Part shown: piece after piece, positions 34,850 through 45,262 of the stretch | Numbering within the stretch: the stretch's first letter is position 1 | Layout: the number at the start of each line of letters is the position of its first letter | Source of the DNA: Actinomycetota bacterium | GTDB lineage: Bacteria; Actinomycetota; Acidimicrobiia; Acidimicrobiales; SZUA-35 | Reading direction: 5' to 3' | Assembly (NCBI GenBank): GCA_039029715.1 | Contig: JBCCFN010000001.1 | Coordinates: 1-55,512, forward strand | Length of the DNA stretch: 55,512 nt | The notes under the pieces: model-generated | The model's input: the letters and a program-made list of their open reading frames with translations, nothing else | Told to the model about the DNA's origin: nothing | Databases searched by the model: none | Made by a program: the position numbers and the translations under genes

Positions 34850-35617
34850 ATGACCGGCCGACGGCGGCCGACCGCCGTGGTGACCGGGGCCTCGGGTGGG
34901 ATCGGCTCGGCCATCGCCCGCCGCCTGGCCGCTGACGGTCATCGGGTCGTCGTCGGCTATCACCGATCGGTCGAACGGGCGGACGAGCTCGTCGCCTCGC
35001 TGGCCGGCGACGGGCATCGGGCGGCCCGGATCTCGGTGCTGGAACCGGACTCCCTGGCTGCCCTGGCCGATGACCTCCGGGCCGAGGTCGGGCGCCTCGA
35101 GGTCTTGGTCAACTGCGCCGGTGTGACCCGTCCGGTGGCCCACGATGATCTCGACGGTCTCGATGACGAGCTGATCGGCGAGATCTTCGCAACCAACTGG
35201 CGCGGCCCGTTCGCCGCCATCCGGGCCCTCCGGCCGCTCCTCGAGGAGCCGTCGGCCCAGGGTGATCCGGCCGCTGTCGTGGTCAACATCTCGTCGATCG
35301 CCGGGGTGACCGGCCAGGGCTCGAACGTGGCCTACTGCGCCTCGAAGGCGGCGCTCGACTCGATGACCCGGTCCCTCGGTCGGGCCCTGGCCCCGTCGAT
35401 CCGGATGGTGTCGGTGTCGCCCGGTTGGGTCCTCGGGGAGTATGCGGACCGGATGCCGCCCGGGGCGCTCGACGTGCAGACCCAGGCCACCCCGCTCGGT
35501 CGGCTGGCCACGCCGGACGACGTGGCTGCTGCAGTCAGCGCCGCGGTCCACACCCTGACCTTCACCACCGGCGCCGTGATTGGTGTCGACGGTGGCCGGA
35601 TCCTGGGAACGAGCTGA
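34850..35617 (+). CDS. SDR family oxidoreductase
   Basis: Motifs: VTGASGGIGSAIA, NCAG, YCASKAAL, SPG. Confidence 0.88.
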   Translation: MTGRRRPTAVVTGASGGIGSAIARRLAADGHRVVVGYHRSVERADELVASLAGDGHRAARISVLEPDSLAALADDLRAEVGRLEVLVNCAGVTRPVAHDDLDGLDDELIGEIFATNWRGPFAAIRALRPLLEEPSAQGDPAAVVVNISSIAGVTGQGSNVAYCASKAALDSMTRSLGRALAPSIRMVSVSPGWVLGEYADRMPPGALDVQTQATPLGRLATPDDVAAAVSAAVHTLTFTTGAVIGVDGGRILGTS

Positions 35618-35660
35618 GGTCGTGGCTGGCGATCCATCGTCGGGGCTGCGGTGGCGTGGA

Positions 35661-36521
35661 ATGACCGGGGCGGAGCGGGAGCGGGCGTACTCCCCGAGTT
35701 CGTGCCTGGCGGATGGCGACTATCGCCCCTTCGTTGAGGCCTATCGCAACCGGAGCGATGCCGCATGGTCGGCCGTCCACGCCATGTCTGACGTCCGGGT
35801 CGATCAACTCAGGTACGGGGACGGGCCGGCCAACACCGTCGACGTCGCGGTGCCGGTCGGCGACCGTCAACCACCGCTCCTCGTCTACCTCCATGGTGGG
35901 TACTGGCAGGAGTTGTCAAAGCTCGACTCTCGGTTCGCCGCCGCCGACTGCATCCGGCGGGGGTGGGGCTTCGCCGCCGTCGACTACACGTTGGCCCCCG
36001 AGGCATCGGTTCCGGCCATCGTCGAGGAGTGCCGACGGTCGATCGCAACCCTGCGGTCGAACGTCGCCACCCTGGGATTCGACCCGGCACGGCTGGTCGT
36101 AGCCGGGAGCTCGGCCGGAGCCCATCTCGCTGCCATGGTGTGCCTCGACGCCGAGCCCGCCATCGCCGGGGCGGTCCTGGTGTCCGGCATCTTCGAGCTG
36201 GAACCGCTGATCGGGACGTCGATCAACGAGGCGCTCGGGCTCGACGCTGACGCGGCGCGACGCAACAGTCCGCTCCTGGCCGACCGAGCCCGGCTGGCCG
36301 CCGCCCCGCCGACCGTGATCGCCCATGGCCAATACGAGACCGCCGAGTTCAAGGCCCAGTCCCGTGCCTTCGCCGCGAGACTGGGGCCCAGTGGCAGGGC
36401 CGGGACGCCGATCGAGATCGTGGGGCGGAACCACTTCGACGTGATCCTCGACCTGGCGGCTCCCGAGACCACACTCGGCGCTGCGGTTGCCGCCCTGGTC
36501 GCCGCAACAGCAACCGCCTGA
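35661..36521 (+). CDS. alpha/beta-hydrolase-fold arylformamidase (kynurenine formamidase candidate)
   Basis: From ORF 35580..36521. Oxyanion motif HGGYW, nucleophile elbow GSSAG, and C-terminal NHFD. The N-terminus ERERAYSPSS.. is typical of this esterase/formamidase group. The start is ATG 35661, with GTG 35622 as the alternative. Confidence 0.65.
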   Translation: MTGAERERAYSPSSCLADGDYRPFVEAYRNRSDAAWSAVHAMSDVRVDQLRYGDGPANTVDVAVPVGDRQPPLLVYLHGGYWQELSKLDSRFAAADCIRRGWGFAAVDYTLAPEASVPAIVEECRRSIATLRSNVATLGFDPARLVVAGSSAGAHLAAMVCLDAEPAIAGAVLVSGIFELEPLIGTSINEALGLDADAARRNSPLLADRARLAAAPPTVIAHGQYETAEFKAQSRAFAARLGPSGRAGTPIEIVGRNHFDVILDLAAPETTLGAAVAALVAATATA

Positions 36522-36574
36522 CCGAAGCCGCCGGCTGGCGAACCGACTGGTGGGGCGCCGCCGACCACGATCTG

Positions 36575-36619
36575 CATTCGTCTGAATGTTTGACACAAGG
36601 ATTCATATGGATGTAGTTT
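36575..36619 (+). promoter_or_regulatory. candidate promoter (TTGACA-18 nt-TAGTTT) overlapped by ATTC-N4-GAAT-type inverted repeats
   Basis: TTGACA lies at 36590-95 and TAGTTT at 36614-19, and the MarR GTG follows 6 nt later (leaderless-type geometry). Inverted repeats: CATTCgtctGAATG (36575-88) and ATTCatatGGAT (36601-12). Confidence 0.45.
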
Positions 36620-36625
36620 TCGCTC

Positions 36626-37096
36626 GTGCCCGGCGATGCCAACTTCCTGACCGGCTACCTGCCCTACCTGTTGCGGCAGGCAGACCAGACGCTGTCGGCG
36701 CCGTTCTACTCCGTCCTCAACCGGTACGGGGTGGCCCGCTCGGAGTGGCGGGTCATCGCCGTCATCCATGAGCTTGGCGAGCTTCCGGTCATCGGGCTGG
36801 CCGATGCTGCGCTCAGCCCCCAACCGACCGTGACCAATGCCCTGAGGCGCCTCGAGCAACGGGGCCTGGTCCGGCGGACCCCGGGGGAGGTCGACAAGCG
36901 GCAACGGTTCGTGTCGCTCACCCCCGCCGGGACCGAGTTGGCGGCCGCCCTCATCGCCGAGGCTCGTCGGCTGGAGGCCGAGCAGCTGGCCGACGCCGGC
37001 GACCTGTCGGAACTGATGGATCGGCTCCGCTCGCTCACCGCCAACATCGAGGCCGGCCTCCAGCGCAGCCAGGAGCAGGCCCGGCGGACCGGGTGA
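36626..37096 (+). CDS. MarR family transcriptional regulator
   Basis: A winged HTH: ..EWRVIAVIHELGELPVIGLADAALSPQPTVTNALRRLEQRGLVRRTPGEVDKRQRFVSLTPAG... GTG start. Confidence 0.9.
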   Translation: MPGDANFLTGYLPYLLRQADQTLSAPFYSVLNRYGVARSEWRVIAVIHELGELPVIGLADAALSPQPTVTNALRRLEQRGLVRRTPGEVDKRQRFVSLTPAGTELAAALIAEARRLEAEQLADAGDLSELMDRLRSLTANIEAGLQRSQEQARRTG

Positions 37097-37117: not shown

Positions 37118-38050
37118 ATGCCGATCTTTGAACCGCACTTCCCGGTGGTGGTCGACCCGGACGGGGTGGACGCGTCACCTCACCCGCGACCGATGCCGAT
37201 CACGACCGATCGGACCCGGGCCGAGACGGTCGCTGTGACCGGCGGCGAGCCGCTGGTCGACTTCGACGGGACCTCGAACCCCTACATCGACTATCAGAGC
37301 ATCGACCTGTTGCTCTCCCTCCAGCACCCTCGGAGCAAGGGCTACGACGAGATGTGCTTCTTCGTCATGGGCCAGGTCAAGGAGTTGCTGTTCCGGGGAC
37401 TGCACTTCGAGCTGGTCAACGCCCAGCATCAGCTGCGGGACGATGCGATCGACAACGCCCTGTCGATCCTCGGTCGGGCCGGCGGGTACGTGGACTACCT
37501 CACCTCGTCCTGGGACCTGCTGTCGACCATCTCGACCGAGGGGTTCAACCAGTTCCGGGACACCTTGGGTACCGCCTCCGGGCAGCTGTCGTTCATGTAC
37601 CGCCATGTCGAGTTCGTCCTCGGGAACAAGAGCGAGCGGCTGGCCCTGGCCCACCGCAACGTCCCCCACGTCTGGCCGGCGATCGAAGCGTCGCTGCGGT
37701 CGCCGAGCCTCTACGACGATGCGATCGCACTGCTGGCCCGCCGGGGGCTTGCGATCGACGGGGCGGCGCTCGATCGCGACTGGTCCGAGCCGTACCGGGC
37801 CGATCCGTCGGTCGAGGGGGCGTGGCGTGAGGTCTTCGCCGACCCGGACGCCGCCAATCCGCTCTACCGGCTCGGCTGTGCGCTGATCGACATCGACCAG
37901 CGGTTCTCGGTCTACCGGTGGCGCCACTTCGTCTCGGTCGAGCGGATCATCGGCTACAAGCCGGGAACCGGCGGCTCGGCCGGTGTGGCCTGGCTCGACG
38001 ACGTCACCAGGCATCGATTCTTCCCTGAGATCTGGGCAACCGCCAACTGA
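37118..38050 (+). CDS. divergent tryptophan 2,3-dioxygenase (TDO) family paralogue
   Basis: TDO blocks are present but altered: YIDYQSIDLLLSLQ; DEMCFFVMGQVKELLF (canonical ..HDEtLFIIIHQvyELWFK); FRDTLGTASGQLSFMYRHVEFVLG; YRWRHFVSVERIIGYKPGTGGSAG. The proximal His is retained. Confidence 0.75.
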   Translation: MPIFEPHFPVVVDPDGVDASPHPRPMPITTDRTRAETVAVTGGEPLVDFDGTSNPYIDYQSIDLLLSLQHPRSKGYDEMCFFVMGQVKELLFRGLHFELVNAQHQLRDDAIDNALSILGRAGGYVDYLTSSWDLLSTISTEGFNQFRDTLGTASGQLSFMYRHVEFVLGNKSERLALAHRNVPHVWPAIEASLRSPSLYDDAIALLARRGLAIDGAALDRDWSEPYRADPSVEGAWREVFADPDAANPLYRLGCALIDIDQRFSVYRWRHFVSVERIIGYKPGTGGSAGVAWLDDVTRHRFFPEIWATAN

Positions 38051-38067: not shown

Positions 38068-38625
38068 ATGACCATCTACGACCCGAACATCGCAGCACAG
38101 CGTCGCCCGTTCTCGCTCCAACGTTGGATCGACGAGCATCGTGACGAGCTGCGGCCACCGGTGGCGAACAAGCAGGTCTGGCGGGAGGCCGACATGATCG
38201 TGATGATCGTCGGTGGCGGCAACGAGCGGAACGACTTCCACGACGACCCCCGGGAGGAGTTCTTCCACCAGATCAAGGGCGACATGGACCTGTGGATCTG
38301 GCCGGAGGAAGGGACCGCCCCGTACCGGATGCCGATCAAGGAGGGCGAGGTCTACCTCCTGCCGCCCCACCTCCGGCACTCTCCCCAGCGTCCGGATCCG
38401 GACTCGATCGGCCTGGTGGTCGAGTACGCCAGGCGGCCGGGTGAGTTGGACGGCTTCGAGTGGGCGTGCAGCAACTGCAACCGGCTGGTCCACCGGGTCG
38501 AGTTGCAGGTCCAGGAGATCGATCGGGACCTGCCACCGCTGTTCGCCGCCTTCAACGAGGACATGGACGCCCGGACCTGCCCCTACTGCGGCACCGTCCA
38601 CGCCGGCCGGGACGGCCGCCTGTGA
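38068..38625 (+). CDS. 3-hydroxyanthranilate 3,4-dioxygenase
   Basis: A cupin with FHDDPREEFFHQ..GDM and LLPPHLRHSPQR (His/Glu/His iron ligands), plus the C-terminal rubredoxin-like CSNC...CPYC site typical of bacterial HAO. Confidence 0.9.
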   Translation: MTIYDPNIAAQRRPFSLQRWIDEHRDELRPPVANKQVWREADMIVMIVGGGNERNDFHDDPREEFFHQIKGDMDLWIWPEEGTAPYRMPIKEGEVYLLPPHLRHSPQRPDPDSIGLVVEYARRPGELDGFEWACSNCNRLVHRVELQVQEIDRDLPPLFAAFNEDMDARTCPYCGTVHAGRDGRL

Positions 38626-39863
38626 CTCACCAACGTGCGGCCGAACTGGACGCCGCCGACCCGTTGGCTCCGTTCCGGGACGAATTCGAGGTCCCGGAGG
38701 GGATCTACCTGGTCGGCAACTCCCTCGGGGCGATGCCGCGGTCGGTCCGGGCGAACGTCGGGATCGAACTGGACCGGTGGAGCACGCTCGGGGTCGAGGG
38801 CCACTTCACCGGCGACCTGGCATGGAAGGACTACCACGAGCTGCTCACCGAGCCGCTGGCCCGGGTGGTCGGCGGTCACCGGGATGAGGTCGTCGCCATG
38901 AACGGGCTGACCGTCAACCTCCACCTGCTGATGGTCAGCTTCTACCGGCCGACCGCCGGCCGCCACAAGATCCTGATCGAGGATCATGCCTTCCCGTCAG
39001 ACCACTTCGCCGTCGAGTCCCAGATCCGGCAGCGGGGCTTCGACCCGGCGAGCTCCCTGGTGGTGCTGGCCCCGAGGGAGGGCGAGGAGACCCTCCGGGC
39101 CGAGGACATCCTGGCCGCCATCGCCGAGTGCGGAGACGAACTGGCCCTCGTACTGTTGCCAGGGGTCCAGTACTACACCGGCCAGGTCCTGCCGATGGCA
39201 GACATCGTGGCCGCCGGCCATGACGTCGGGGCCATGGTCGGCCTCGACCTGGCCCACGCCGCCGGCAACGTCGAACTCTCGCTGCACGACTGGGATGTCG
39301 ACTTCGCCGCCTGGTGCACCTACAAGTACCTCAACAGTGGGCCCGGGGGCGTGGCCGGGGCCTTCGTCAACCGGCGCCACGTCGCGGACCAAACCGTGCC
39401 GAAGTTCCTCGGCTGGTGGGGGACCAACCCGGACACCCGGTTCGCCATGTCGACCCGGTTCGACCCGATCCCGACCGTGGAGTCCTGGCAGCTGTCGAAC
39501 GCCCCGATCCTGCCGATGGCGGCGCTGCGGGCGTCGCTCGACATCATCGACCGGGCCGGCGGCATGGCGGCCCTTCGTCGCAAGTCGGAGCTGCAGATCG
39601 AGTTCTTCGACCGCCGGCTGGAGGAGACCCTGGCCGGTCGGGTGGTGAACCTGACGCCGAAGGCCCTGGCCGACCGGGGCTGTCAGTACGCCCTGCAGGT
39701 CGTCGACGGCCGAGGGCGTGAGGTGTTCGAGGAGCTGGAGTCGGCGAAGGTCCGGTGCGACTGGCGGGAGCCGGATGTGATCCGGGCCGCACCGGTGCCG
39801 CTCTACAACTCGTTCGCAGACATCGACCGGTTCGTCGACATCCTGGACGGGATCGTCCGATGA
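38622..39863 (+). CDS. kynU: kynureninase
   Basis: From ORF 38460..39863. The GTG 38622 start overlaps the HAO stop (GTGA). Recognisable blocks: ..DPLAPFRDEFEVPEGIYLVGNSLG.., ..HAFPSDHFA.., PLP-Lys block WCTYKYLNSGPGG, ..FLGWWG... Confidence 0.9.
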   Translation: MTHQRAAELDAADPLAPFRDEFEVPEGIYLVGNSLGAMPRSVRANVGIELDRWSTLGVEGHFTGDLAWKDYHELLTEPLARVVGGHRDEVVAMNGLTVNLHLLMVSFYRPTAGRHKILIEDHAFPSDHFAVESQIRQRGFDPASSLVVLAPREGEETLRAEDILAAIAECGDELALVLLPGVQYYTGQVLPMADIVAAGHDVGAMVGLDLAHAAGNVELSLHDWDVDFAAWCTYKYLNSGPGGVAGAFVNRRHVADQTVPKFLGWWGTNPDTRFAMSTRFDPIPTVESWQLSNAPILPMAALRASLDIIDRAGGMAALRRKSELQIEFFDRRLEETLAGRVVNLTPKALADRGCQYALQVVDGRGREVFEELESAKVRCDWREPDVIRAAPVPLYNSFADIDRFVDILDGIVR

Positions 39864-41221
39864 GGCTCGGCGAGAACGGACCGATCGTGATCATCGGCGC
39901 CGGCCAGGCCGGTGCCCTGCTCGCCGCACTGTTGGCCCGCCAGGGCCACGACGTCACGGTCTACGAGAGCCGCCCCGATCTGCGGCGGGTCGACATCGAT
40001 GCCGGCCGCTCGATCAACCTGGCGCTGGCGACCAGGGGCATCGTCCCACTGATCGACGCGGGGGTGATCGACCGGGTCGACGCCATCACCATCCCGATGC
40101 GGGGGCGAATGATCCATGCGGTCGGCGAACCGATCCCCGAGCTCCAGCCCTACGGCACCGCGGCCCATGAGGTCATCCACTCGGTGTCCCGCACCGACCT
40201 CAACGCCATCCTGCTCGACGCCGCCGAGGCGACCGGTCGGGTCACCATCGAGTTCGACGCACCGGTCCGGTCGGTCGACTTCGACGCGTCGGTCGTCCGC
40301 TTCGACGGCGGTCGGACCGAGCCGTTCGGCGTGGCGTTCGGGGCCGACGGGGCCGGTTCCCGGGTCCGGAAGGCCATGGCCGAGGCCGGCTCCTGCGTCT
40401 TCGCCACCGACTGGCTCGACCACGACTACAAGGAGCTGACCCTGCCCCCGGCCTCGGCCGGCGTGCACCTGCTCGACCCCCACGCACTCCACATCTGGCC
40501 CCGGGGCGAGTTCATGCTGATCGCCCTGGCCAACCCGGAGGGCGACTTCACCGTCACCCTGTTCGCCCCCAAGGACACCATCGCCGCGCTGGTTGACCGG
40601 GTGTCGATCGATCGGTTCTTCGGCGACTGGTTCCCCGGCTTTGCCTCCCTGGTCCCCGACCTGGCGGACCAGTTCCTCGAGAACCCGACCGGGGCGCTCG
40701 GGACGATGCGGGCCCGGGGGTGGAGCCACGACGGGCGAGGGGTCATCGTCGGCGATGCGGCCCATGCCATCGTGCCGTTCCATGGCCAGGGGATGAACGC
40801 CGCCCTGGAGTCGGTCCGGATACTCGACCGTCACCTTCGGGCCAATCCAGAGGACGTCGCTGCGGCCTTCGCCGGATACGAGGCCGAGCGAAAGCCGGAC
40901 GCCGACGCCATTGCCGACATGGCCCTCGACAACTACCTGGAGATGCGGTCGGGCGTCGTCGACCCGGACTACCTGGCCAAGCGGGAGCTGGCATTGATCC
41001 TGGAGCAACGCCACCCCCGGTATCTGCGGCCCCGGTACAACATGGTGATGTTCTCGACCATGCCCTACGCCGAGGCCAAGCGTCGGGCCCGGACCCAGGC
41101 CGAGATCATCGCCGCCGGCCTTGCCGATGAGTCGGTCGACGTCGATGCGCTGGTCCAGGCCCTCGACCCGCTCCCGGCCGATGACCCGCTCGCCGACCCG
41201 GAGGCCCTGTCGATCTCATGA
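39860..41221 (+). CDS. kynurenine 3-monooxygenase (FAD-dependent)
   Basis: From ORF 39755..41221. ATGA overlap with kynU. Recognisable blocks: IVIIGAGQAGALLA, ..RSINLALATRG.., GADGAGSRVR, ..HIWPRGEFMLIALAN.., GDAAHAIVPFHGQGMNAALES. Confidence 0.88.
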   Translation: MRLGENGPIVIIGAGQAGALLAALLARQGHDVTVYESRPDLRRVDIDAGRSINLALATRGIVPLIDAGVIDRVDAITIPMRGRMIHAVGEPIPELQPYGTAAHEVIHSVSRTDLNAILLDAAEATGRVTIEFDAPVRSVDFDASVVRFDGGRTEPFGVAFGADGAGSRVRKAMAEAGSCVFATDWLDHDYKELTLPPASAGVHLLDPHALHIWPRGEFMLIALANPEGDFTVTLFAPKDTIAALVDRVSIDRFFGDWFPGFASLVPDLADQFLENPTGALGTMRARGWSHDGRGVIVGDAAHAIVPFHGQGMNAALESVRILDRHLRANPEDVAAAFAGYEAERKPDADAIADMALDNYLEMRSGVVDPDYLAKRELALILEQRHPRYLRPRYNMVMFSTMPYAEAKRRARTQAEIIAAGLADESVDVDALVQALDPLPADDPLADPEALSIS

Positions 41222-42045: not shown

Positions 42046-43482
42046 ATGCCGACCTATCCGGAGCTGAAGCTCTACATCAACGGCCAGTGGCGGACAACGG
42101 ATGAGACGCTGCCGGTCGTGAATCCGGCGACCGAGGCCGAGATCGGTCGGCTGCCGGTCGCCAGTACGGCCGACCTCGACGACGCCCTGGCCGCTGCGGC
42201 GGCCGGGTTCGAGGTGTGGAGCCGCACCGCGCCGAAGGAGCGGGCGGCGCTGGTCCGGGCCGCGTCTGCCCTGATGCGGGAGCGACAGGACGAGATCGCC
42301 CACTCGATCACCCTCGAACACGGCAAGCCGTTCGAGCAGGCCCGGCTCGAGGTGATCCGGGGTTGTGAATTCTTCGAGTGGGACGCCGGCGAGGCGGTCC
42401 GGACCTACGGCCGGGTCATCCCCAGCGGCCCCGGGGTCAAGTACATCGTCCACCACCTGCCGATCGGTCCGGTCGCCGCCTTCGCTCCATGGAACTTCCC
42501 GATGAGCCAACCGGCCCGCAAGGTGGCCGGTGCGGTGGCATCTGGCTGCTCGATCATCCTGAAACCGGCCGAGGAGACCCCGGCCGGGGCCATGCACATC
42601 GTCCAGGCGTTCGAGGACGCCGGCCTGCCGCCGGGGGTGCTCAACCTGGTGTTCGGCGTGCCGACCGACATCTCCCAGCACCTGATCCCGAGTCCGATCA
42701 CCAACCTGGTGGCGTTCACCGGCTCGACCACGGTCGGCCGCCACCTGACCGGCCTGGCATCCGACCATATGACGCCGGTCCTGATGGAGTTGGGCGGCCA
42801 TGCGCCGGTCATCGTCTGCGAGGACACAGACGTCGAGGCGGCGGCGCTCAGCTCGGCGGTCCGCAAGATGCGGAATGCCGGGCAGGTCTGCACCTCGCCG
42901 ACCCGGTTCTTCGTCAACGAGCAGGTCTACGAACAGTTCCTCGACGTCTTCACCCGCCGGTGCGAGGCCACCGTTGTCGGTGACGGCATGACCGATGGCG
43001 TCGAGATGGGTCCGCTGGCCAACGATCGCCGGATCGCCGCCATGCGGCGCCTGGTCGACGATGCGGTCGATCACGGGGCGAAGTTGATGACCGGCGGCAC
43101 TCGGATCGGCTCGTCCGGCTACTTCTTCGAGCCGACGGTGCTGGCCGGAGTGCCGGAGGATGCGGCCGTCATGCGGGAAGAACCGTTCGGGCCGTTGGCC
43201 ATCGTCAACGAGGTCGACTCGCTGGACACCGCCATCGAGCAGGCCAACTCGGTTCCCTACGGGCTTGCCGCCTACGGCTTCACCAATCGGGCCGACTACG
43301 CCGACCGGATGGTCGATCGGGTCGAGGCCGGCAACCTGTCGATCAACACCCTGGAGGCATCGTTGCCGGAGACCCCGTTCGGTGGGGTCAAGTGGAGCGG
43401 CTACGGCCGGGAGGGCGGGGCCGAGGGCCTTCACCACTACGCCGTGGTCAAGAACGTGTCCCACAGCATGTCGATCGTCTGA
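42046..43482 (+). CDS. NAD(P)-dependent aldehyde dehydrogenase (semialdehyde-dehydrogenase-like)
   Basis: Motifs: WNFP, FTGSTTVG, catalytic ELGGHAP and AGQVCTSP. It resembles succinate / 2-oxoglutarate-semialdehyde dehydrogenases more than I can tie it to 2-aminomuconate-semialdehyde dehydrogenase. Confidence 0.85.
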   Translation: MPTYPELKLYINGQWRTTDETLPVVNPATEAEIGRLPVASTADLDDALAAAAAGFEVWSRTAPKERAALVRAASALMRERQDEIAHSITLEHGKPFEQARLEVIRGCEFFEWDAGEAVRTYGRVIPSGPGVKYIVHHLPIGPVAAFAPWNFPMSQPARKVAGAVASGCSIILKPAEETPAGAMHIVQAFEDAGLPPGVLNLVFGVPTDISQHLIPSPITNLVAFTGSTTVGRHLTGLASDHMTPVLMELGGHAPVIVCEDTDVEAAALSSAVRKMRNAGQVCTSPTRFFVNEQVYEQFLDVFTRRCEATVVGDGMTDGVEMGPLANDRRIAAMRRLVDDAVDHGAKLMTGGTRIGSSGYFFEPTVLAGVPEDAAVMREEPFGPLAIVNEVDSLDTAIEQANSVPYGLAAYGFTNRADYADRMVDRVEAGNLSINTLEASLPETPFGGVKWSGYGREGGAEGLHHYAVVKNVSHSMSIV

Positions 43483-43500
43483 TCACCGGGAGGAGCTGCG

Positions 43501-44454
43501 ATGCAGTATCGGAAGAGCGAGGCCAAGGCCTACGCCATGGAGCACATGAACGGGATCTGGGCCGCCGCACTGTTGCCGTTCACCGAGGACCACCGGATCG
43601 ACGAGGACGGGTTCCGGGAGAACATCCGCCACTGGACCGAGGATCTCGGCATCGAGGGGCTGTTCATCTCCGGCAAGCAGGGGGAGTTCTTCTCCCTGTC
43701 GATCGAGGAGCGGAAGCGGACCTTCGAGCTTGCGGTCGAGGCCACCGGGGACCGGGGCTACACGATCATGTCATGCTCGGACCAGAACCTCGACGTCGTG
43801 CTGGATCTGGCCCGTCACGCCCAGGATGTCGGGGCGGACTACATCGTTGTCCACGCACCGGCCCTCCACTTCTTCACCGGCTACGACGAGACGTTGCTCG
43901 GGTACTACAGCCGGATCGCAGCGTCGGTCGACATCGGCATCGCACTGTGGAGCCACCCGTCGAGCGGCTACCTGATGTCGCCGCAGCTGTGCAACCGGCT
44001 GGCAGACATCGAGAACGTGGTGGCGATCAAGTACAGCGTCGATCGTTCCATGTACGCCGAGCTGACCGAGCTGGCCTCGGATCGGATCCAGGTCAGCACC
44101 GCCTCGGAACCGGAGTGGCTGGACAACATCCTGGATCTGCGGTGGAAGCTGTACCTGTGCTCGTCCCCGCCCTACCTGCTCCAGAGCGCGGTCGACCGGC
44201 GGATGCACGACTACACCCAGGCCGCCCTGGCCGGCGACGCCACCGAGGCCAAGGCCATCAGCGCCAGCCTGGACCCGGTGCGGGACGCCCTGTGGGGCAC
44301 CCGGCCGGCCGAGAAGCCCCACGCCCACCAGAAGTACTGGCAGGAGCTGCTCGGCCAGGTCGGTGGCAGGGTCCGGTTCCCTCTGCTTGAGCTGACCGAC
44401 GAGGAGAAGGCGGCAACCAGGGAGGCGTTCTACCGGTGCGGGCTCCAGGTCTGA
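43501..44454 (+). CDS. dihydrodipicolinate synthase/N-acetylneuraminate lyase family protein (class I aldolase/dehydratase)
   Basis: DHDPS-fold pattern: ..GIWAAALLPFTED..IDEDGFRENI.., ..GLFISGKQGEFFSLS.EER.., and the Schiff-base Lys context VVAIKYS. Confidence 0.8.
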   Translation: MQYRKSEAKAYAMEHMNGIWAAALLPFTEDHRIDEDGFRENIRHWTEDLGIEGLFISGKQGEFFSLSIEERKRTFELAVEATGDRGYTIMSCSDQNLDVVLDLARHAQDVGADYIVVHAPALHFFTGYDETLLGYYSRIAASVDIGIALWSHPSSGYLMSPQLCNRLADIENVVAIKYSVDRSMYAELTELASDRIQVSTASEPEWLDNILDLRWKLYLCSSPPYLLQSAVDRRMHDYTQAALAGDATEAKAISASLDPVRDALWGTRPAEKPHAHQKYWQELLGQVGGRVRFPLLELTDEEKAATREAFYRCGLQV

Positions 44455-44458
44455 GCGG

Positions 44459-45262
44459 GTGATGACCGAGCCACTGCGGGTTGGGCTGATCGGCTGGGGC
44501 GCCATCGGTCGGACCGTGGCCGAGCTGCTCGCCGACCAGTCGGTCGAGATCGTGGCCGTCGGGGTCCGCCGGCCAGACCTGGCGCGGGACGACCTGCCGG
44601 CCGGGGCGCAGCTGGTGACCGCCCCAGACCAGCTGGCCGGGCTGGACCTCGATGTGGTCGCCGAGGCCGCGGGCCGGGACAGCGTCGACCCCTGGGGCCA
44701 CGCCGCCCTGGCTGACGGGGCCGATCTGATCGTGTCCTCGGTATCGGCGCTGGCCGACCCGTCCCTGCTCGATTCGCTCCGCCGCAGCGCCGCCGACCAC
44801 GGCGCCCGGTTGGAGATCCAGACCGGGGCACTGGCCGGGATCGACGCCCTGGCCGGCGCCAGACTGCTCGGGATCGACGAGGTCGAACACCGGATCGTCA
44901 AACCGCCGCCGGCCTGGCGGGGGACGCCGGCCGAGCGGCTGTGCCCGCTCGATGACCTGACCGAGCCGACCGTGTTCTTCCGCGACACCGCAGCGGCCAC
45001 CGCCTCGGCCTTCCCCAAGAATGCGAACGTGGCCATGACCACCGCCCTGGCCGGTATCGGCCCGGACGAGACCGCCATCGTGCTGGTTGCCGATCCCGCC
45101 GCCACGACCAACCGCCACGAGATCCGGACCGCCGGGGCGTTCGGCTCGCTCGAGGTCTCGATCGCCAACAACCCGCTGCCGGCCAACCCCAAGACCTCGG
45201 CCATGGCCGCCCTCAGCCTCGTCCGGGCCATCCGGAACCGGGTCGATCCGCTGGTCATCTGA
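44459..45262 (+). CDS. aspartate dehydrogenase (NadX)-family protein
   Basis: Rossmann N-terminus VGLIGWGAIGRTVA. Family blocks: ..VSSVSALAD.., ..IQTGALAGIDAL.., KPPPAWRGTPAE, ..FPKNANVAMTTALAG.., ..NPKTSAMAALS... The start is GTG 44459 or ATG 44462. Confidence 0.75.
   Translation: MMTEPLRVGLIGWGAIGRTVAELLADQSVEIVAVGVRRPDLARDDLPAGAQLVTAPDQLAGLDLDVVAEAAGRDSVDPWGHAALADGADLIVSSVSALADPSLLDSLRRSAADHGARLEIQTGALAGIDALAGARLLGIDEVEHRIVKPPPAWRGTPAERLCPLDDLTEPTVFFRDTAAATASAFPKNANVAMTTALAGIGPDETAIVLVADPAATTNRHEIRTAGAFGSLEVSIANNPLPANPKTSAMAALSLVRAIRNRVDPLVI

Follow-up and report, generated by a model that had tools for sequence, protein, structure and literature searches.

A conserved tryptophan 2,3-dioxygenase subfamily with glycine at the distal histidine position, linked to probable kynurenine formamidase genes

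Introduction

The role of the distal histidine of tryptophan 2,3-dioxygenase (TDO) has been argued over for about two decades, through point mutants and through the contrast between TDO and IDO. The window analysed here, a stretch of 55,512 nucleotides from a member of the Acidimicrobiales, encodes two TDO homologues in one operon, one of which carries glycine where the distal histidine is expected. Is this glycine a chance loss, and what does a TDO without the histidine do beside a canonical one?

Identity and fold

The open reading frame at 37118-38050 (+) translates without stops into a protein of 310 amino acids (P0001), which matches PF03301 from residue 48 to residue 307, covering positions 9-341 of the 346 in the profile (146 bits, Pfam gathering cut-off 34.9). 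In a sequence search of the PDB, the top solved structure is 2nox (E 3e-60). All 15 matches with E <= 0.01 are named tryptophan 2,3-dioxygenase, and PrnB, MarE and IDO1 chains are not among them. The AF2 model (pLDDT 92.1, pTM 0.90) aligns by Foldseek with 2nox at TM 0.94 and 1.9 A, and with XcTDO at TM 0.88-0.91. The top Foldseek matches are all bacterial TDOs; the entries in the Foldseek rows shown are all named TDO in the PDB sequence search, with two titles (9etv and 9esf) reading 'Holo IDO'. The fold is thus that of TDO, and the gene probably encodes a dioxygenase that cleaves indole at the 2,3 bond and presumably binds haem.

P0001 and the canonical paralogue (P0002, 41218-42024, +) share 32% identity, and the assembly, at 77.6% completeness, yielded no other PF03301 gene. 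The first-pass annotation had described P0001 as a divergent second copy of TDO that lacks the distal histidine, and both the PF03301 match and a gapless alignment to solved TDOs bear this out. The motifs it listed, FFVMGQVKELLFR, ASGQLSFMYRHVEF and YRWRHFVSV, are all found in P0001, and P0002 reads FIIIHQVYELWFK and ASGFQSAQFRELEF as it stated. Two details need correction. The TDO gene is not the first of its operon: it is preceded, at a distance of 21 nt, by a MarR gene (36626-37096). The N-terminal extension, given as about 55 residues, is about 45 residues relative to P0002 and about 32 relative to XcTDO; it is conserved and predicted to be ordered. Annotation pipelines call genes of this type 'TDO family protein', and the KynA equivalog model (TIGR03036, EC 1.13.11.11, cut-off 390.7) rejects them, P0001 scoring 271.1 bits; the canonical P0002 also falls below the cut-off, at 267.7 bits.

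Residues of the distal pocket

Residues 75-306 of P0001 align without gaps to 2nox, 3e08 and 7p46 (phmmer). The residue at XcTDO position 55, that of the distal histidine (His55), is Gly85 (codon ggc, 37370-37372, +), in agreement with the first reading of this codon. No gap interrupts the helix in the alignment to 2nox and XcTDO, so the histidine has not simply been displaced by an indel. The next histidine in P0001, His96 (LHFEL), has a counterpart in canonical TDOs, and a replacement supplied by the N-terminal extension is ruled out, as His7 and His22 are not conserved. Gly85 is invariant in 121 of 121 close homologues (68-86% identical), which is beyond chance; judged by this conservation, the distal glycine is a selected state and no accident.

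The rest of the active site is largely that of TDO. The proximal haem ligand is retained as His270 (codon 37925-37927, +; XcTDO His240), in the YRWRHF context already noted for this gene, and its column is invariant in alignment A1. Arg147 (XcTDO Arg117, the carboxylate Arg) and Thr284 (Thr254, GTGG loop) are at least 90% conserved across the same alignment. Of 12 XcTDO substrate or haem contacts, taken in part from PMC2652831 and numbered through the 3e08 alignment, nine are identical in P0001 (Y24, Y27, F51, R117, L120, S124, G125, H240 and T254). Y113 is replaced by Phe, a change common to P0002. The closest characterized comparison is KynA (Cupriavidus metallidurans 2NOX; Xanthomonas campestris 2NW7/2NW8), which shares its Pfam family and its fold with P0001 (TM 0.94, 37-39% identity). 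Common to both are the proximal His, the carboxylate Arg, the GTGG-loop Thr, the N-terminal Tyr-Tyr segment, Phe51, Leu120, Ser124 and Gly125. However, relative to KynA, His55 has become Gly and Leu28' Gln, SGFQS reads SGQLS, ELW(F/L)K reads ELLFR, and Tyr/Phe292 is Trp. In the pocket, H55G, L28'Q, F126Q, Q127L and the Tyr/Phe-to-Trp change at 292 lie at the N1/C7 edge of the indole, where a substituent would sit.

The second of these changes is contributed by the neighbouring subunit. Gln60 (codon 37295-37297, +) occupies the position of XcTDO Leu28', which adjoins His55 (PMC11904535), and is at least 98% conserved in the Gly-type family. His-type TDOs have Leu at this position in 49 of 50 rows. 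Gln or Glu is seen there only together with a distal Gly or Ala (7 of 10 such rows, against 0 of 17 rows with Ser, Thr, Cys or Val), a covariation with few independent events behind it. One formamidase fusion of the Thr type has His at 28'.

The distal His of TDO contacts the indole N1-H, yet XcTDO H55A remains active and IDO has Ser167 at the distal position (PMC2652831), thus TDO chemistry does not need a histidine as base. The H55A and H55S variants of XcTDO (3BK9, 3E08) and IDO1 (Ser167) resemble P0001 in lacking the distal His, and retain dioxygenase activity. However, the former are engineered point mutants and the latter a distant family, whereas the change in P0001 is natural, invariant and accompanied by coordinated changes in the pocket. 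The role of the histidine in holding the indole N-H has probably been taken over, or rendered needless, by the remodelled pocket, and Gln60, reaching the site from the neighbouring subunit, possibly stands in for it, a role suggested by its position and conservation. As a natural, conserved, cross-phylum lineage with second-site changes, the Gly-type TDOs offer a system for asking what the histidine does in gating, ferric/ferrous discrimination and specificity.

Distribution and phylogeny

Full-length homologues of P0001 (60-86% identical) are found in Actinomycetota and several proteobacterial orders. The hosts of the 121 close homologues belong to Acidimicrobiales, Burkholderiales, Rhodobacterales, Rhizobiales and SAR116. 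In a quick LG+G4 tree, with SH-aLRT as the sole measure of support, the Gly-type family is nested in a bigger clade of His-less TDOs (SH-aLRT 95). To this clade also belong His-less TDOs that are fused to or clustered with P422 genes, as happens in clusters of the actinomycin or mycemycin type. Literature searches turned up no description of a bacterial TDO clade that lacks the histidine. The Gly-type subfamily is an unstudied, horizontally spread branch of TDO.

Within the genus (24 genomes), the canonical His-type TDO is universal (24/24). The Gly-type TDO and the formamidase discussed below are both present in about 12 of these genomes and both absent in 9. Gly-type and His-type TDOs occur together in 13 of 13 genus genomes with the former, in all five named proteobacteria and in about 29 of 36 further genomes; in the window they share an operon. 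This co-occurrence argues for some functional difference between the two. The Gly-type protein is the sole TDO in 7 of the 36, but all seven are MAGs or SAGs of at most 2.4 Mb that may be incomplete, and they carry little weight.

Partner genes and the kynurenine pathway

The gene upstream of the MarR gene (35580-36521, +; start perhaps an ATG near 35661) encodes an alpha/beta-hydrolase fold-3 protein (Abhydrolase_3, PF07859) with HGGYWQ and GSSAG motifs, which fit the HGGxW oxyanion and GxSxG nucleophile patterns. It matches the Drosophila kynurenine formamidase 4e11 over residues 71-297 (E 5e-19). From these features it is probably an Afmid/Bna7-type kynurenine (aryl)formamidase. In 80 related loci, an Afmid-type formamidase gene lies directly upstream of the TDO gene in 72; kynureninase (28 loci), 3-hydroxyanthranilate 3,4-dioxygenase (HAO, 11) and a DHDPS-like gene (10) are the other recurring neighbours. 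Natural Abhydrolase_3-TDO fusions form five protein clusters. The KynA gene, too, is coupled to genes for formamidase and kynureninase, but there the formamidase is of the KynB cyclase type.

The kynureninases next to the Gly-type TDO are informative about its product. His-102 and Asn-333 of human KYNU have been cited as determinants of preference for 3-hydroxykynurenine (3-HK) (PMC11967295). The diagnostic residues could be read in 29 of the adjacent kynureninases, and 28 of these instead carry W and G-T/S, like KynU of P. fluorescens. This kynurenine-preferring signature points to the plain conversion of L-tryptophan to L-kynurenine, and tells against the substituted tryptophan proposed as substrate in the first-pass annotation. 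Whole-pathway loci are also found, with the orders KYNU-HpaB-like-RidA-HAO-formamidase-TDO and KYNU-TctC-RidA-HAO-ACMSD-formamidase-TDO. The family thus sits in catabolic kynurenine and 3-HAA clusters across several phyla, rather than acting as the pathway-specific enzyme of secondary metabolism once suggested for it. The gene neighbours indicate that the Gly-type TDO still starts ordinary tryptophan breakdown.

In the preferred reading, the Gly-type TDO is a working L-tryptophan dioxygenase isozyme and forms, with the formamidase, a mobile tryptophan-to-kynurenine module; a probability of roughly 0.6 is given to these two statements jointly. The TDO would convert L-tryptophan to N-formylkynurenine and the Afmid-type enzyme would release L-kynurenine, which would then enter the host's own route. 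In the window this route would consist of kynurenine 3-monooxygenase (KMO), a 3-HK-type kynureninase and HAO, and in most proteobacteria of a kynurenine-type kynureninase yielding anthranilate. In the proteobacterial carriers, the search for KMO returned only weak FAD-hydroxylase paralogues (25-32% identical). One strong KMO match is in a genome labelled Verrucomicrobiales (G053), but the contig looks Acidimicrobiia-type. If annotation treated the formamidase and TDO genes as a single unit, tryptophan catabolism would be reconstructed better in abundant aquatic groups such as the Roseobacter group, SAR116, Acidimicrobiia and freshwater Burkholderiales.

Alternative substrates and chemistries

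The alternative that survives best, though still unlikely, is that the Gly-type TDO is specialised for ring-substituted tryptophan, most plausibly modified at the N1/C7 edge, as in 7-hydroxy-L-tryptophan. Loss of the histidine side chain would make room for the substituent, and the deformylated product would be 3-hydroxykynurenine, made without KMO. This would suit the contact of the distal His with the indole N1-H (PMC2652831), and the small residues at positions 55 and 28' in the His-less clade. DUF6875 is the 'P422' family, which hydroxylates tryptophan at N1, C6 or C7, and a bypass of KMO through 7-hydroxytryptophan and TDO has been proposed for it (bioRxiv 10.64898/2025.12.11.692455). Two natural DUF6875-TDO fusions are both His-less, one with Thr (P0144) and the other with the same Gly/Gln signature as P0001 (P0145). 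The near-constant company of a His-type TDO is also as this alternative would have it. A Rhodoferax locus (L107) has a 3-HK-type kynureninase, formamidase, Gly-type TDO, RidA, HAO and ACMSD together, and KMO was not found in its genome.

However, PF21780 (P422) was not found in the window's genome or in 52 others with the Gly-type family (47 + 5), in a search whose positive control found it in 2 of 201 Actinomycetota genomes. No TDO gene lies within about 10 kb of the two P422 loci found in other Actinomycetota. The family of P0001 differs in this from the P422-coupled TDOs, its partners being formamidase and kynurenine-type kynureninase genes in catabolic clusters. The signature of 28 of the 29 kynureninases also speaks against a substituted substrate. 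So does the HpaB-like hydroxylase encoded between the kynureninase and HAO genes in the Rhodobacterales clusters, which would be superfluous were the hydroxyl already on tryptophan, and the window has a KMO of its own. To our knowledge, 7-hydroxytryptophan is not a common environmental substrate.

A wider form of this idea, which we regard as more doubtful still, is that the whole His-less clade is a natural radiation with its pocket rebuilt at positions 55 and 28' to accept N1/C7-modified tryptophan, and that the Gly/Gln family also uses 7-hydroxy-L-tryptophan. If so, bacteria would have a way of making 3-hydroxykynurenine and 3-hydroxyanthranilate that does not depend on KMO, with the Rhodoferax locus as a candidate example, and the two TDOs of the window's operon would differ in substrate. 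The His-less TDO-P422 fusions mark where 7-hydroxytryptophan dioxygenases should be sought.

It is very unlikely that the Gly-type TDO performs another oxygenation, such as 2-oxindole formation of the MarE kind or a rearrangement of the PrnB kind, or serves as a non-catalytic sensor of haem or tryptophan. Superfamily relatives with a TDO-like fold do carry out other chemistry (PMC11904535, PMC11791213), and the pocket is remodelled. MarE, PrnB and the haem-dependent tyrosine hydroxylases, members of the haem-dependent aromatic oxygenase superfamily, resemble P0001 in their His-ligated haem, TDO-like helical fold and aromatic amino-acid substrate. However, they are too distant for a sequence match (E > 0.01), so that only proteins named TDO are recovered from the PDB at the threshold used, and not one has a formamidase coupled to it. 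A formamidase, whether encoded alongside or fused, makes sense only with an N-formyl product, MarE itself retains the distal His (His55), and the Arg, Thr and GTGG loop that serve an amino-acid substrate are conserved in the Gly-type protein.

Least credible is that the Gly-type TDO acts on an indole or tryptophan carrying a sulfate or another conjugated group, together with the downstream sulfatases, aryl-sulfotransferase (ASST) and P450, a link drawn in the first-pass annotation. These genes share a strand with the TDO gene in the window, but the neighbour counts exclude them as conserved partners (sulfatase in 1 of the 80 loci, ASST in 0, P450 in 2 with weak matches at 26% identity), the formamidase-TDO pair of genus relatives lies at loci without them, and against the one adjoining, divergent sulfatase gene (L033) and one TDO-sulfatase fusion (P0294, 59% identical, Gly at 85 and Glu at 60) stands the fact that the fusion is a single-member cluster and may be an artefact of gene calling.

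Organisation of the operon

The L-tryptophan module favoured above is embedded in a longer operon in the window. A MarR-family regulator (36626-37096, +; PF01047) heads it, and this is the only genome in which a MarR gene separates the formamidase and TDO genes; relatives have the arrangements MarR-HAO-KYNU-KMO-TDO(His) or MarR-TDO(His)-ALDH and further genes. The AT-richer intergenic region at 36522-36625 contains a TTGACA box and a short palindrome (CATTC-N3-GAATG), and by this reading is a probable promoter and operator of the operon; a consensus promoter scan of the region returned no promoter under its rule. Downstream of the Gly-type TDO gene follow, all on the + strand, HAO (38068-38625; PF06052; NF009763 241.8 bits, cut-off 220), kynureninase (38460-39863; real start probably near 38622), a KMO-like FAD hydroxylase (39755-41221; PF01494; real start probably near 39860) and the canonical TDO with distal His (PF03301). 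The HAO-KYNU-KMO-TDO order is kept in relatives. The kynureninase is of the 3-hydroxykynurenine-preferring type (TIGR01814 403 bits; human KYNU 3e9k, E 2e-107), with His at human position 102 and Ser-Asn at 332-333. The formamidase-TDO module appears to have merged into a MarR-headed kynurenine operon that already held the canonical His-type TDO, and the operon would therefore encode two isozymes. The aldehyde dehydrogenase (ALDH), DHDPS-family and aspartate-dehydrogenase-family proteins encoded next (42046-45262, +) form a trio that recurs with kynurenine and HAO genes in other loci (L023, L037, L046, L059, L074, L075 and L082).

A family of tryptophan dioxygenase homologues lacking the distal histidine

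The ORF at 37118-38050(+) encodes a 310-aa protein, P0001, which matches Pfam Trp_dioxygenase at 146 bits and is 32% identical to P0002 (41218-42024), a canonical tryptophan 2,3-dioxygenase (TDO) that reads FIIIHQVYELWFK. No other PF03301 gene was found in the assembly (77.6% complete). Residues 75-306 of P0001 align without gaps to solved bacterial TDOs (phmmer), and Gly85 (ggc, 37370-37372) falls on position 55, the distal His, of the Xanthomonas campestris enzyme (XcTDO). The first-pass annotation of P0001 as a divergent TDO without this His is thus borne out, and the check for a His displaced by an indel returned the same gapless alignment. Its N-terminal extension, previously put at ~55 aa, is ~45 aa relative to P0002, and its gene, described as first in the operon, is preceded 21 nt upstream by a MarR gene (36626-37096), with a good GGAGG ribosome-binding site between the two.

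With numbering from the 3e08 alignment, P0001 Y56, Y59, F81, R147, L150, S154, G155, H270 and T284 correspond to XcTDO Y24, Y27, F51, R117, L120, S124, G125, H240 and T254; the residues that bind the amino-acid moiety are thus retained, as is the haem ligand. The substitutions (Q60 for L28, G85 for H55 and F143 for Y113) are located at the indole N-H edge, and Phe at the Y113 position is common to P0001 and P0002. The AlphaFold2 model of P0001, based on a 56-sequence alignment, has a mean pLDDT of 92.1 and a pTM of 0.90; low confidence is limited to the GTGG loop, and order is predicted for the N-terminal extension (block means 79-94), which includes a helix at 31-41. Foldseek places bacterial TDOs on top (2nox, TM 0.94, 1.9 A) and also matches XcTDO, including its H55A and H55S variants; the other entries listed are only eukaryotic TDOs (human, Drosophila), with far weaker E-values.

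P0001 has thousands of relatives in a large protein collection, named 'tryptophan 2,3-dioxygenase family protein' in source annotations. The best 120 of these share 68-86% identity with P0001 across their whole length of 310-312 aa, which takes in the extension; among them and P0001, Gly85 is invariant (121/121) and the motif M-G-Q-V-K-E-L-L-F nearly so. Judged by this conservation, the Gly85 state is a family trait and no accident. Literature searches turned up no experimental study of this subfamily (Gly-TDO). A quick ML tree of representatives at 50% identity places P0001 in a 26-row clade (SH-aLRT 95) without any distal His, the residue being Gly, Ala, Ser, Thr, Cys or Val, and the His-bearing TDOs, P0002 among them, fall apart from it. 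A scan of species-representative genomes finds Gly-TDOs at 60-85% identity in Acidimicrobiales (including Ilumatobacter), Burkholderiales (Variovorax, Rhodoferax, Polaromonas, Rubrivivax), Rhodobacterales (Sulfitobacter, Planktomarina, Pseudodonghicola), Rhizobiales (Rhizobium, Hoeflea), SAR116, Rhodospirillaceae and one Verrucomicrobiales-labelled MAG; such a distribution implies horizontal transfer.

The distal His is known to be dispensable: XcTDO H55A is still active and IDO has Ser at the same position (PMC2652831). Position 28', contributed by the neighbouring subunit, lies against His55 (PMC11904535). Here 49/50 His-type representatives have Leu; Gln/Glu is found in 7/10 of those with distal Gly or Ala and in 0/17 of those with distal Ser, Thr, Cys or Val, and one Thr-type hydrolase-TDO fusion has His. 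Gln60 is at least 98% conserved in the Gly-TDO family. The neighbouring chain may therefore have taken over the polar contact with the indole N-H, although few independent events lie behind this covariation.

Genomic context

At 72 of 80 related Gly-TDO loci an alpha/beta-hydrolase gene lies directly upstream on the same strand, and other neighbours include kynureninase (KYNU; 28 loci), 3-hydroxyanthranilate 3,4-dioxygenase (HAO; 11), DHDPS-like (10), AspDH-like (4) and ALDH (4) genes. A P450 (26% identity) is found at two loci, a sulfatase at one and ASST at none, arguing against the suggested tie of Gly-TDO to these genes; the kynurenine-pathway neighbours likewise do not bear out a role in secondary metabolism. 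The hydrolase carries the motifs HGGYWQ and GSSAG, and Drosophila kynurenine formamidase (4e11, E 5e-19) ranks third among its solved relatives. The second-ranked, PDB 2pbl (E 5e-21), a 'putative esterase/lipase/thioesterase' of Silicibacter sp. TM1040 (Rhodobacterales), may represent the formamidase partner of Gly-TDO without having been recognised as such.

Clusters with a complete pathway are KYNU, HpaB-like hydroxylase, RidA, HAO, hydrolase, Gly-TDO (Paracoccaceae); KYNU, TctC, RidA, HAO, ACMSD, hydrolase, Gly-TDO (Rubrivivax); and KYNU, hydrolase, Gly-TDO, DHDPS-like, AspDH-like, HAO (Burkholderiales). Natural fusions confirm the link to kynurenine-pathway steps: Abhydrolase_3-TDO fusions form five clusters, four with the Gly/Gln signature, and one kynureninase-TDO fusion (P0300) is His-type. 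Another, the TDO-sulfatase P0294, is a single-member cluster 59% identical to P0001 and the sole hint of a link between the Gly-TDO family and sulfatases.

The window holds, in order, the alpha/beta-hydrolase (35580-36521), MarR, Gly-TDO, HAO, kynureninase, a KMO-like hydroxylase (KMO, kynurenine 3-monooxygenase), His-TDO, ALDH, DHDPS-like, AspDH-like, two sulfatase, ASST and P450 genes; MarR and its probable promoter region separate hydrolase and Gly-TDO. Among 24 other species of the genus, His-TDO is present in all, set in MarR-HAO-KYNU-KMO-TDO or MarR-TDO-ALDH-DHDPS-AspDH in those examined. Gly-TDO occurs in about 13, usually at its own separate locus, and in most of these directly adjoins the hydrolase gene. 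The two genes come and go as a pair, with both in ~12 genomes and neither in 9; the hydrolase occurs without Gly-TDO in three (one 91% complete, two <82%). In the window, therefore, an accessory module of two genes has merged with the resident kynurenine operon. KynB-like cyclase-type proteins, encoded elsewhere in the genus genomes, could be partners of the canonical operon.

A TTGACA box and the palindrome CATTC-N3-GAATG lie in the 104-nt formamidase-MarR gap (36522-36625), which probably serves as promoter and MarR operator for the entire array; with the MarR start at GTG 36626 there would be almost no leader. In the Verrucomicrobiales-labelled MAG, a KMO with 71% identity to that of the window (G053:C72:13335-15583; locus L045) lies beside a His-type TDO, as in Acidimicrobiales, and its contig may be mis-binned or recently transferred.

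Substrate of the Gly-type enzymes

Human KYNU His-102 and Asn-333 are cited as deciding the preference for 3-hydroxykynurenine (PMC11967295); P. fluorescens KynU aligns Trp and Gly-Thr there. In the window and in the genus operons the kynureninase carries His and Ser-Asn, in line with the KMO encoded next to it. Among 29 kynureninases adjoining the hydrolase-Gly-TDO pair and readable at these positions, 28 have Trp and Gly-Thr/Ser, and His and Ser-Asn are found only in L107, a locus of a Rhodoferax MAG. From these signatures, the module product in nearly all carriers would most simply be plain L-kynurenine, and the substrate therefore L-tryptophan. We give a probability of about 0.6 to P0001 being an L-tryptophan 2,3-dioxygenase isozyme that forms, with the Afmid-type formamidase, a mobile tryptophan-to-kynurenine module.

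The main alternative, a specialist for substituted tryptophan, is considered unlikely, although several observations fit it. A His-type TDO nearly always accompanies the Gly-type, here in one operon, suggesting some functional difference, and the distal His site coincides exactly with the N1/C7 edge. The His-less clade also includes a TDO of Streptomyces olivaceus, the source of mycemycin. A recent preprint shows hydroxylation of Trp at N1, C6 or C7 by DUF6875 (PF21780, 'P422') proteins, gives MymH of mycemycin as a Trp 7-hydroxylase and proposes a KMO bypass from 7-OH-Trp through TDO and formamidase (bioRxiv 10.64898/2025.12.11.692455). Two His-less-clade representatives, one with the Gly/Gln signature, are DUF6875-TDO fusions (P0144, P0145), of which that preprint makes no mention; a Flavin_Reduct-TDO fusion (P0163) is, like both of these, His-less. 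However, PF21780 was not found in the window's genome or in 52 other Gly-TDO carriers, the same search being positive in 2/201 Actinomycetota. One locus fits the specialist better: L107:3740-9049 encodes the 3-hydroxykynurenine-type kynureninase, formamidase, Gly-TDO, RidA-like, HAO and ACMSD, and neither a KMO orthologue nor P422 was found in its genome, so the genes found do not explain the source of the 3-hydroxyl.

In Paracoccaceae, an HpaB-family flavin monooxygenase (L066:2554-4119; TIGR02310, 779 bits, under the cut-off of 885) lies between KYNU and HAO, as in L077, L079 and L080, and may act as a 3-hydroxylase of anthranilate or kynurenine that would take the place of KMO. Four Burkholderiales MAGs (G281-G283, G285; L059, L074, L075, L069) have HAO and kynurenine-type KYNU, with ACMSD also in L069; KMO, close HpaB-like and P422 genes were not found in these genomes, which MAG incompleteness could explain, leaving the step from anthranilate to 3-hydroxyanthranilate without an assigned gene. 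At five Rhodobacterales loci (L061:750-2840 and four others), the DHDPS-like, kynureninase, formamidase and Gly-TDO genes are preceded by one for the large subunit of a molybdopterin hydroxylase (Ald_Xan_dh_C, MoCoBD_1/2). The ALDH, DHDPS-family and aspartate-dehydrogenase-family trio (42046-45262) also lies beside HAO/kynurenine genes in L023, L037, L046, L059, L074, L075 and L082; ACMSD (Amidohydro_2) is missing from several such clusters, the window's included, and the trio may be an undescribed processing route for the HAO ring-cleavage product.
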